DNA of 64,000 nucleotides from Eledone cirrhosa (Eukaryota). Under the pieces are notes generated by a model. That model searched no databases, was not told the DNA's origin, and saw nothing but the letters and a program-made list of their open reading frames with translations. The number at the start of each line of letters is the position of its first letter. The first letter of the stretch is position 1. Positions 23,093-26,716 of this stretch are shown here, piece after piece. Both the position numbers and the translations under genes were made by a program. The stretch is taken from NCBI GenBank assembly GCA_964016885.1, contig OZ024740.1, positions 185,318,001 through 185,382,000 on the forward strand. The letters run 5' to 3'.

Positions 23093-23665
23093 ATGTTCGG
23101 TTTGTTTGTTTGTAAACAAACAAACAGCCCGAATTACGCCGTACAGTGTTCAGGAAACAATCGTCGCCTTTTTGTTCAACTCTGACGCAGGAACGATGTA
23201 CTAGTTTCAAGCGTATTAGCTATCGTCAGCATCGTATACCTTCCTGCCAGATGATTGAACGTCTGAAAGTATATACTTCCCTCATGCATATTAACGGCTG
23301 AGCAGCCTAATTTGCATATCGAGTGAGTTAATTGACTGGGCGCACCGAAAACGATAACTGGAAAAGAAAGAAACGAAATTTCATTTCTCACTCTTAGTAC
23401 GGCTGATACTTAAATGTAAGTAGGTATGTATACGTACAAACATATATGTACACTGACGTACAGTAGTATGTATATATATACATACATGCACACTTTTGTA
23501 TATGTACGTATAGGTTTACCGAACATTTATTATAATGTTCGGTTTGTTTGCTTGTAAACAAACAGCCCGAATTACGCAGTACAGTATTCAGGCAACCATC
23601 GTCGCCTTTTTGTTGAACACTGACACTGTATCAGCCGTACTAAGAGTGAGAAATGAAATTTCGTA
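23093..23665 (-). mobile_element. Retrozyme-like repeat, ~442 bp monomer plus partial tandem copy and short inverted segment
   Basis: 23093-23186 recurs at 23535-23626; 23628-23665 is the reverse complement of 23373-23409; contains an HHR; no ORF. Confidence 0.75.
23193..23235 (-). ncRNA. Minimal type I hammerhead ribozyme
   Basis: Minus strand: ACGATG-CTGACGA-tAGC(taatac)GCTt-GAAA-CTAG-TA-CATCGT; perfect 6 bp stem I, palindromic stem III. Confidence 0.88.
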
Positions 23666-23849
23666 TAATTCTTTTCTCTCTCTCTCTCTCTCTCTCTCTC
23701 TCTCTCTATATATATATATATATATATATATATATATATATATATATATATATATATATATATATATATATATATATATATATATATACATATATATACA
23801 ATAACGCACCAGAGTATTCAATACTTAGGGCAGTAGAATGGGAAATAGG

Positions 23850-24025
23850 AAAATGTATGACCCCGACGGCAGAGCTTAAGCCATTTCGACGGCTATTTCT
23901 GGACTATTCATACTCTTTCATCTGGACTGAAATAACCGTCGAAACTTCTTGAGCTCTGCCGTCGGGGTCATACTTTTTCATATATATATATATATGAAAA
24001 AGTATGACCCCGACGGCAGAGCTCA
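23850..24025. repeat. GC-rich fold-back with three alternating copies of tatgaccccgacggcagagct
   Basis: Copies near 23856 (+), 23951-23972 (-) and 24003 (+); inner stem tttcgacggctatttc/gaaataaccgtcgaaa. Confidence 0.85.
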
Positions 24026-24735
24026 TCCGGTTCCCTACCACAATTCCTTCGTTATATATGTAGGTATATATATATATATATAATATTCATGTCTATATAT
24101 ATATATAATATTCATGTATTTATATATATATATATATAATATTCATGTATATATATATATATAAATAATATTCATATATATATATATATATATATATATA
24201 TATATATATATATATATATATAAATAATATTCATATATATATATATATATATATAATGTATAAAAATCAATACAATATAATATATATTTATATATATATA
24301 TATATATATATATAAATAAATAAATAATATTATATATATATATATATAAATAATATTATATATATATATATATTAATAGTATTCATATATATATATATGT
24401 ATATATATATAAATAATATTATATATATATATATATAAATAATATTCATATATATATATATGTATATATATATAAATAATATTCATATATATATATATAT
24501 ATATATATATATATATATAAATAATATTCATATATATATATATATATATATATATATATATATATATATATATTGTTATACTTTGGGAGGGTCATGTTGC
24601 CAATAAGAAACACACGCACCAGTTGCTTTCACTTCAATTTATTATATATTTATAAATTTATAAACTTGCAAATCTACAAACTTATAAATTTCTGGTTGGT
24701 TGGTTGGTTCCACAACCAGATAGTTGTTTATATAT

Positions 24736-24780
24736 AGTCATAGTCCTTTCGTAACACCATCTGTGACCTCTTCAGTGACT
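24736..24780 (-). ncRNA. Type I hammerhead in pseudo-LTR
   Basis: Minus strand: AGTCA-CTGAAGA-stem II (gtcaca..tgttac)-GAAA-GGAC-TA-TGACT. Confidence 0.82.
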
Positions 24781-25285
24781 GGGGATTCCCTCTTTGTTTC
24801 TGTGCCTTTGCTTTCTTCTGTCCTACGCCATTTTGTTTCTGTGTGTGTGTTGTGTGCTCAGTTTGCGCATGCGCCACATCCGGGTGTCTGTGTGTGTTTG
24901 TGTTCATTTATCTATTTGTTTATTTATTTATTTATTTATTGTTGGTTGGTTGTTTGTTCTATGTGTGTGTGTGTTTTCATTTTGTCCTTAATTGTAAGTT
25001 GTCATGTTCCTGTTCCACTCATATTTTCTATTTAATTTTGGTTGTAATTCTTTTATGCTTACTGCCTCTGTAATTTGCCTAAACATTGCATCTTTTCTGT
25101 AGATAGAACAAACAACCAACCAACAATAAATAAATAAATAAATAAACATATAGATAAATGAACACAAACACACACAGACACCCGGATGTGGCGCATGCGC
25201 AAACTGAGCACACAACACACACACAGAAACAAAATGGCGTATGACAGAAGAAAGGAAAGGCACAGAAACAAAGAAAGGAATCCCC

Positions 25286-25330
25286 AGTCACTGAAGAGGT
25301 CACAGAGTGTGTTACGAAAGGACTATGACT
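25286..25330 (+). ncRNA. Type I hammerhead in inverted pseudo-LTR
   Basis: AGTCA-CTGAAGA-GGTCACAGAGTGTGTTAC-GAAA-GGAC-TA-TGACT. Confidence 0.82.
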
Positions 25331-25858
25331 ATATATAAACAACTATCTGGTTGTGGAACCAACCAACCAACCAGAAATTTATAAGTTTGTAGATTTGTAA
25401 ATTTATAAATTTATAAATATATAATAAATTGAAGTGAAAGCAACTGGTGCGTGTGTTTCTTATTGGCAACATGACGCTCTCAAAGTATAACAATATCGGT
25501 TTCAACACACGATTTCAGATAAAGAATCTTGCTAAACAAATTCAGAAACGATATATATATATATATGAATAATATTTATATATATATATATATATATATA
25601 TATATATATATATATATATATATATATATATATATATATATATACATAATATTCATATATATATATATATATATATATAAATAATATTCACATATATATA
25701 TAAATAATATTCATATATATATATATATATATAAAAAAATTATATATATATATATAAAAATAAAATTCATATATATATATATATATAAATTATATATATA
25801 TATATATAAATAATATTCATATATATATATATATATATATATAAATTATATATATAAA

Positions 25859-26047
25859 TAATTGTTTCTACTTTAGGCAGAAGGCCAGCAATTCCCCAGT
25901 GCATTACTGGTACTTTATTTTATCGACCCCGTAAGGATGAAAGGCAAAGTCAACCTTGGCGGGATTTGAACTAAGATTGTAAAGGGACGTAACTATGTTG
26001 GAAAGCATGGCGTCAGAACCTCTACCGATACTGCCCATCCACCGCCC
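25859..26047 (-). mobile_element. SINE family A
   Basis: Reverse complement of the 10393-10573 copy. Confidence 0.88.
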
Positions 26048-26284
26048 TCATATATATATATATATATATATATATATATATATATATATATATATATATA
26101 TATATATATGAATATATATATATATATATATTATATATATATATGAATATATATATATATATATATTATATATTTATATATATGAATATATATATATATA
26201 TATATATATATACATATATATATATATATATATATATATATATATATATATATATATATATATATATATAAAACGAAAAAATGA

Positions 26285-26716
26285 AAACAAATTTCATTTC
26301 TCAATCTTAGTACGGCTGTTACTTAAATATAAGTATGTATACGTACATACGTATATGTATACAGACGTACAGTAATATGTATATATATACATACATGGAC
26401 ACATATATATATGTACGTATGGATTTACCAAACATTTATTATAATACTCGGTTTGTTTGTAAACAAACATCCCGAATTAAGCCGTACACTCTTTAGCAAC
26501 CATCGGTGCCCTTTTGTTCAACACTGACAAAGGAACGATGTACTAATTTCAAGCTTATTAGCTATCGTCAGCACCGTATACCTTCCTGCCAGATGATTGA
26601 ACGTCTGAAAGTATATACTTTACCTATTCATATTAACGGCTGAGTAGCCTAATTTGCATATCGAATGAGTTAATCGGCCTGACGCACCGAAAACGATAAA
26701 TGGAAAAAAATTAAAC
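26285..26716 (-). mobile_element. Second, circularly permuted monomer of the ~442 bp retrozyme-like repeat
   Basis: Same blocks as 23093-23535 but starting and ending at the position equivalent to ~23372. Confidence 0.78.
26535..26577 (-). ncRNA. Minimal type I hammerhead ribozyme
   Basis: Minus strand: ACGGTG-CTGACGA-tAGC(taataa)GCTt-GAAA-TTAG-TA-CATCGT; differences from the 23193 copy are two GU wobbles and one loop change. Confidence 0.85.

Follow-up and report, generated by a model that had tools for sequence, protein, structure and literature searches.

A 64,000-nucleotide stretch of the Eledone cirrhosa genome (assembly GCA_964016885.1, contig OZ024740.1, positions 185,318,001 to 185,382,000; hereafter the window, numbered from its first letter) contains two copies of a non-coding repeat of about 440 bp with a hammerhead ribozyme, and on sequence grounds these are aged copies of an abundant family that very probably belongs to the retrozymes. 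The family's insertions have ends and pairings like those of Penelope-like elements (PLEs), and we consider it highly likely that PLE machinery mobilizes the repeat. The reading that we favor, with a probability of roughly 0.7, is that the template copied is a circular RNA monomer. A more specific version, in which a PLE reverse transcriptase (RT) primes on both strands of a nicked (TA)n tract and copies one ADAR-edited circle to give head-to-head clonal arrays of up to ~20 units per event, seems to us about an even bet.

An earlier note on this DNA described two minus-strand hammerhead units of ~440 bp in different registers, one of about 1.2 monomers and one of a single monomer, and this description is borne out: copy 1 has a period of 442 bp (23087-23186 against 23529-23624, 88% match), and copy 2 aligns to it as two swapped blocks at 85% (E 4e-90 and 2e-80). 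In the hammerhead region the two copies diverge by 13%; from their nearest sampled relatives they diverge by 5% and 7%. The GC fraction is 0.36 (<50%) over 23001-24000. As to the reported lack of an open reading frame (ORF), there are only short frames, the longest from ATG to stop being 68-128 codons in both orientations of three multimers.

On the minus strand the two copies share the hammerhead motif CUGACGA-stem II-GAAA-stem III-GUA, with CTGA located at 23229 and 26571. Stem I pairs over 5 bp, carries a GGUAUA bulge and is extended at length; stem II has 4 bp over a U.U at its base, and stem III 2 bp within a palindrome. The cut site previously placed at 23199/23198 agrees with ours, 23199 being the last base before the predicted cut, and unit position 1 is taken as the first base after it (window 23198). 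A strict type I descriptor matches both window hammerheads, and it gives 27 matches in 590 kb (59 evenly placed 10-kb loci) against 0, 1 and 0 in three shuffles. These 27 matches come from about ten families, with ~10^5 genome-wide by extrapolation, and the three that sit in one minisatellite are doubtful. Rfam hammerhead models matched neither window copy, at gathering threshold or at E<=5, and Rfam microRNA matches were rejected as hairpin noise.

Differences between the two ribozymes had been ascribed to wobbles and loop changes, which is correct for copy 2, where the changes are two G-U wobbles, but not for copy 1, where the change breaks the last stem II pair. Across 56 copies the pairing holds in 96.2% of cells, compared with 29-41% in slid controls, and one stem I pair occurs as AU, UG and GU, although just two pairs change on both sides and the counts are inflated by subfamily descent. 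A sister family, described below, has different letters in stems I and II that nonetheless still pair, with near-identical loops, and thus provides an independent check on the hammerhead structure. A comparison of conservation in the core and the rest of the unit was discarded because the units had been picked by their core motif. Folded as circles, monomers gave z-scores of -6.2 to -13.3 in 4 of 4 cases (30 shuffles each) and of -6 to -16 across all monomers folded, with TA-rich palindromic hairpins contributing. A transcript of the repeat is likely to cut itself into ~440-nt monomers, and a weak palindromic stem III is said to favor dimeric cleavage (PMC4209133).

The genome is 3.0 Gb in size and rich in (TA)n, and the family is large. 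An exact 32-mer of the hammerhead core occurs 9,768 times genome-wide, a lower bound on the number of cores, and an exact 27-mer of the tail occurs 12,862 times, the reversed control giving 0 for each; five dispersed insertions and one array-filled sample were found among sixty evenly placed 10-kb samples, from which ~25,000 dispersed insertions are extrapolated with a wide error. Older subfamilies have units of 420-446 bp, and those of a younger subfamily measure 449-557 bp. The 420-bp subfamily also forms an array on C28, from 109956903 to about 110060000 (~100 kb), with units ~6% apart; it opens with a twin insertion of the usual kind in (TA)n, fills the samples from 109.957 to 110.06 Mb save one at 109.98 Mb, and is absent from 10 of 10 samples at or past 110.07 Mb. 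Its units form a clade of their own, and the array was rejected as a master source for most copies (median distance 0.13). A long terminal repeat (LTR) layout was seen in no locus examined, target-site duplications are unreadable where insertion ends lie in (TA)n, and the comparison of divergence within and between insertions was uninformative in older copies.

Insertion ends were surveyed in 176 loci taken without regard to score, of which 60 were evenly placed, 30 came from a core pattern and 86 from a tail pattern; they yielded 168 distinct arms, excluding edge-cut arms, duplicates between overlapping loci and loci of the C28 array. Of these arms, 138 end at one of two fixed 3' sites, ~220 and ~285 nt beyond the cut and about 60 nt apart, with 57 at site A (unit positions 205-236) and 81 at site B (262-290); a further 10 end in an internal TA run and 20 elsewhere. 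The registers of the copies, whose end points the earlier note had proposed to plot on a circular consensus, are thus not random. A dinucleotide repeat, mostly (TA)n, abuts 121 of the 138 site A or B ends. The two sites are also paired: among 52 head-to-head junctions, 32 join an A end to a B end, none is A/A or B/B, and 20 have one end elsewhere. Because the tail pattern enriches B arms it should have favored B/B pairs, and none was found. All 11 twin insertions examined in the sister family are A/B.

The 5' ends, by contrast with the fixed 3' ends, are scattered, and only 3 of 138 5' ends lie within -6 to +8 of the cut site. Of 68 B arms taken from loci that the core pattern did not retrieve, 40 extend to the cut site, only 3 of them stopping there, and no pile-up of 5' ends at the cut was found. 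As 5' ends read past the cut, it is unlikely that the template was a linear monomer released by cleavage. The differing registers of the two window copies come from a pair of fixed 3' start sites combined with inversion and a 5' truncation of variable extent, a pattern shared with PLEs. The proposal that both copies were reverse transcribed from a circular or multimeric RNA is supported by the passage of 5' ends through the cut, by the absence of joins to PLE ORFs among the sampled arms and by clonal multimers in the sister family, but the argument from register is weak, and the two window copies alone could not separate circle from multimer.

An autonomous PLE of the Neptune/Nematis type is present in the genome (L136), with an RT, a CxxxxCxxC motif, a C-terminal GIY-YIG domain and a U3-A8 minimal hammerhead. 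It has over 11,000 matches genome-wide with long ORFs present, and the animals named among its protein relatives are bivalves. Other PLE lineages (L150:1712-3364, L256:1796-3099 and L146:4644-6074) are more distant from the L136 family. The L136-type PLE has two 3' ends ~62 nt apart in (TA)n, and its 11 close inverted pairs comprise seven short/long, three with one end elsewhere and one long/long. A PLE protein cuts and extends both strands, and the tail is set by the two internal positions of the RNA at which it starts (PMC11167929), and two such start sites plus a tail are PLE traits (PMC11167929; PMC8557442). These shared marks of ends and pairing suggest strongly that the hammerhead repeat inserts as a PLE does.

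Evidence on the template comes mainly from the sister family, a young one, which turned up in a profile search and is colinear with the window family along the whole unit at 61%. Its units are 465-468 bp, with 5,217 exact cores genome-wide and copies up to 99-100% alike, and our sample of it comprises 21 insertions with 82 full units. Thirteen of the 21 hold two or more full units, and ten of these 13 have fixed variants that occur in every one of their units but in none of the other insertions sampled. For example, the insertion at C1:30.83 Mb (30831846-30840562, L330) has 18 identical full units on two inverted arms and 4 differences from the nearest other insertion, and that at C1:56.39 Mb (56387567-56397249 and beyond; L331, L332) has 19 near-identical units with three common variants. 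A single haplotype extends across both arms in all six insertions with full units on both. The assembly retains differences confined to single units, and polishing is thus unlikely to be the cause of the clonality. Fixed private variants common to units or arms were also found in the window family, in 11 of 28 young insertions that were multi-unit or twin.

The shared substitutions of the sister family are also biased. On the ribozyme strand of the 467-bp sister subfamily, A>G accounts for 15 of 26 insertion-shared substitutions and T>C for 3 of 26 (p 0.003), and among all variants there are 30 A>G and 10 T>C (p 0.0009). Within-insertion differences in the sister family show no skew, with A>G being 1 of 11 (Fisher p 0.010 versus shared). 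Several of the A>G changes are clustered or recurrent, and 14 of the 15 lack a 5' G. Adenosine-to-inosine (A-to-I) editing is heavy in cephalopods. The simplest reading would be repeated copying, in both directions, of a single edited monomer.

A mechanism can be proposed on this basis. Monomers of ~440 nt, having cut themselves free, would likely be closed into circles. A borrowed PLE protein would nick both strands of a (TA)n tract, one strand being primed at site A of the RNA and the other at site B; each complementary DNA would then round the circle, for anything from a fraction of a turn to a dozen turns, and the two 5' ends would be joined. In the sister family the template would likely have been A-to-I edited before copying, fixing the edits in every unit of both arms, and some arrays likely grew further at the DNA level. 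If this is correct, the genome holds a direct record of rolling-circle retrotransposition of retrozyme circles, and RNA editing is a heritable source of retrozyme variation.

Several observations weigh against the mechanism. As to the enzyme, one inverted PLE pair (L207/L208, 3.5 kb apart) has two long ends, and neither tail likeness nor profiles singled out a partner PLE for the hammerhead repeat: the likeness of the tail to the neighboring PLE is inconsistent and T-rich, being reached by 213, 58 and 1 of 2000 shuffles, and a tail profile search did not retrieve the neighboring PLE. The 30 best-scoring loci gave five A/B, two A/A and four other twin insertions (n=11). As to the circle, the excess of one-turn insertions is not significant (p 0.19), and in vitro an anole PLE made use of uncleaved RNA (PMC11167929). 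A period-2 alternation of units is seen in L217 and L387, and one of roughly period 3 in one arm at C1:56.39 Mb, patterns that point to DNA-level duplication or multimeric circles, and L249 joins units of two subfamilies; these patterns and the mixed locus show that DNA duplication, template switching or multimeric circles play a part as well. As to editing, the strongest clonality and all of the A>G statistics stem from the sister family and not from that of the window, and with only 21 sister insertions the variants scored as private may be common to unsampled parents. The window family has no A>G skew, with 8 A>G and 8 T>C among shared variants and 43 versus 31 among private changes (p 0.15), the exception being one cluster of three A>G common to three units in L397.

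The most serious alternative is that the same PLE machinery acted on an uncleaved linear multimer transcribed from tandem copies, with arrays grown by DNA duplication and a hammerhead that is slow or used elsewhere. The lack of run-off at the cut site fits this equally well, and the in vitro insertion of uncleaved RNA by the anole PLE, the periodic unit patterns, the ~100-kb array and the subfamily mixture of L249 speak for it; moreover, the U.U at the base of stem II and the 2-bp stem III resemble those of the weak axolotl HHR_Amex2 (PMC7229834). Had a linear multimer been edited, however, the A>G changes would be private to single units, whereas 15 are shared by all units and one is private, and in 6 of 6 sister insertions the haplotype is the same on the two inverted arms. 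Most dispersed copies, in addition, do not derive from the large array that was sampled. We therefore consider this alternative rather unlikely.

It is considerably less probable that the unit is the pseudo-LTR of an autonomous PLE and the copies its 5'-truncated ends, even though every insertion mark is PLE-like and retrozymes have been proposed to derive from pseudo-LTRs (bioRxiv 10.64898/2026.07.22.740005). What lies upstream of a unit is another unit, up to seven in dispersed insertions of the main family and up to 13 in sister insertions, and attachment to a PLE ORF, a check that the earlier note had suggested, was found for none of 215 arms in 132 loci, a sample of the genome. PLE protein matches do occur at 11 loci, at 50 bp to several kb from the arms, the nearest of them beginning mid-protein or beyond (TA)n, and there is none inside the arms. 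Unit profiles run across 65 PLE loci retrieved just copies of the family and its sister; the share of PLEs examined is small, with 35 loci drawn from 10,596 GIY-YIG candidates. A 21-nt likeness of the unit to a PLE RT coding stretch (E 0.02) was taken as chance. The hammerhead itself is canonical and not of the minimal PLE type (PMC4209133). The least credible account is that of a satellite DNA which spread without any RNA stage, only through recombination or extrachromosomal DNA circles. The large C28 array exists, and DNA circles would likewise give permuted, clonal multimers, but the polarity of the ends goes far to refute this account: 3' ends that are fixed, strand-specific and placed at (TA)n, the A/B pairing shared with a PLE, the strand-biased A>G and the structurally conserved ribozyme all point to RNA.

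Table 1. Copies of the hammerhead repeat and adjoining features, in window coordinates unless a locus is named.
Feature	Position	Strand	Remarks
Autonomous-PLE terminal-repeat piece (L136 family)	22926..23070	-	with U3-A8 minimal hammerhead; ends at the PLE short 3' site in (TA)n
15-bp match to 3' end of SINE-like repeat 25860-26050	23075..23089	+	junction truncating copy 1
Copy 1, main arm	23087..23626	-	1.2 units; from position ~15, through one hammerhead, to ~112
Copy 1, type I hammerhead	23175..23260	-	core 23229-23223; predicted cut 23199/23198
Copy 1, inverted 5' arm	23628..23676	+	unit positions 232-280; ends at distal start site B
(TC)n(TA)n tract	23677..23798	.	putative target of the copy 1 inverted arm
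(TA)n tract	26050..26270	.	putative target of copy 2
Copy 2	26270..26717	-	~one unit; 5' limit ~266, 3' limit ~280-287 (distal site B)
Copy 2, type I hammerhead	26515..26602	-	core 26571-26565; 26541 the last base before the predicted cut; stems I and III contain G-U wobbles
Third family fragment	29270..29437	+	positions ~60-216, without hammerhead; ends at proximal site A; (TA)n on both sides
Sister family representative	L203:1851-2800		

The two window copies can be read in these terms (Table 1). Copy 1 was said to end at its 5' side close to the equivalent of the cut site, and it does lie ~15 nt past it; since copy 1 has an inverted second arm, however, this end is an inversion junction; a 5' end near the cut is not a trait of the family. 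Its 3' end (23087) is atypical, and because it abuts the 15-bp match to a short interspersed element (SINE) end and then the PLE terminal-repeat piece, it is probably secondary, from a later rearrangement; the PLE piece is not homologous to copy 1. The repeat at 25860-26050 (minus strand) we take to be a tRNA-like SINE, and 67 occurrences of its 15-bp 3' end were counted in 1.86 Mb of partly overlapping loci. Copy 2 has its 3' end at the distal site, a common one in the family, against (TA)n.

Further hammerhead-like repeats are present in the window. A large inverted repeat between copies 1 and 2 (24575-25500), with hammerhead-like cores at 24775 (-) and 25291 (+), is probably another twin-arm insertion of PLE type. 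A partial tandem with a period of ~453 bp (46638-47211, minus strand) lies between (TA)n tracts and has minimal hammerhead-like motifs at 46756 and 47209. Hammerhead-like motifs of other families occur at 27730 (+), 28074 (-), 28806 (+), 48400 (-), 50597 (-), 53944 (-) and 56130 (+), those at 53944 and 56130 forming an inverted pair. A repeat at 23800-24025, also between (TA)n tracts, has an internal perfect hairpin (23950-24025), and similar sequence lies beside other loci.

Non-LTR retrozymes make circular RNAs in coral, mussel and axolotl, as seen by northern blot (Cervera and de la Pena 2020, PMC7229834), and PLEs have been named as their likely mobilizers, in the accessible text without evidence at the level of insertions (PMC7229834; bioRxiv 10.64898/2026.07.22.740005; PMC11167929; PMC8557442; PMC4209133; PMC11722881; PMC7761336). 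The enzyme that moves animal retrozymes, and whether the circle is its template, are stated to be open (PMC7229834; PMC7761336; bioRxiv 10.64898/2026.07.22.740005). In the literature searched we found no octopus or cephalopod retrozyme or hammerhead family of this kind and no A-to-I editing of retrozymes, subscription papers being mostly uncovered and most matches judged by listing; octopus, cephalopod and squid are absent from two of the three supplement files of PMC4209133. The metazoan non-LTR retrozymes and the present repeat have in common tandem units that are low in GC and do not code for protein, a type I hammerhead of canonical form, strong self-pairing as circles and residence beside PLEs (PMC7229834), and with axolotl HHR_Amex2 the repeat shares its stem II base and stem III. 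The units here lie at the upper limit of the reported lengths or exceed them (420-557 bp versus 150-450), and the accessible part of PMC7229834 does not mention two fixed start sites, insertion aimed at (TA)n, inverted arms in pairs, clonality of haplotypes or an excess of A>G; the circles there were seen by northern blot, whereas the evidence here comes from DNA.

Autonomous GIY-YIG PLEs such as Neptune and Poseidon share with the repeat partial tandems, an inverted 5'-truncated arm, a tail at one end, microsatellite or AT-rich targets and two internal start sites (PMC8557442, PMC11167929); the repeat differs in having no ORF, a tail of ~60 nt rather than 30-40 (PMC8557442, PMC11167929), start sites 220-290 nt beyond the cut and a canonical rather than minimal hammerhead. 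The MRC1-type elements of Chlamys are likewise non-autonomous PLE dependents that form head-to-tail multicopy insertions, but their 3' sequence is common with a known partner, while here no partner homology is established and a hammerhead is present (PMC8557442). Vertebrate retrozymes related to pseudo-LTRs also occur as monomers, dimers and multimers for which PLE dependence is proposed (bioRxiv 10.64898/2026.07.22.740005); that account argues from co-occurrence and sequence kinship and favors local tandem amplification, whereas ours draws on insertion ends and haplotypes. This family is very probably a new member of the non-LTR retrozymes, with good genomic evidence on how it moves. Its PLE-type start sites, A/B pairing, clonal multimers and strand-biased A>G give testable answers from DNA, and the presence of a near-intact young family and long PLE ORFs in one genome means that the reaction could be rebuilt with the existing PLE assay in vitro.
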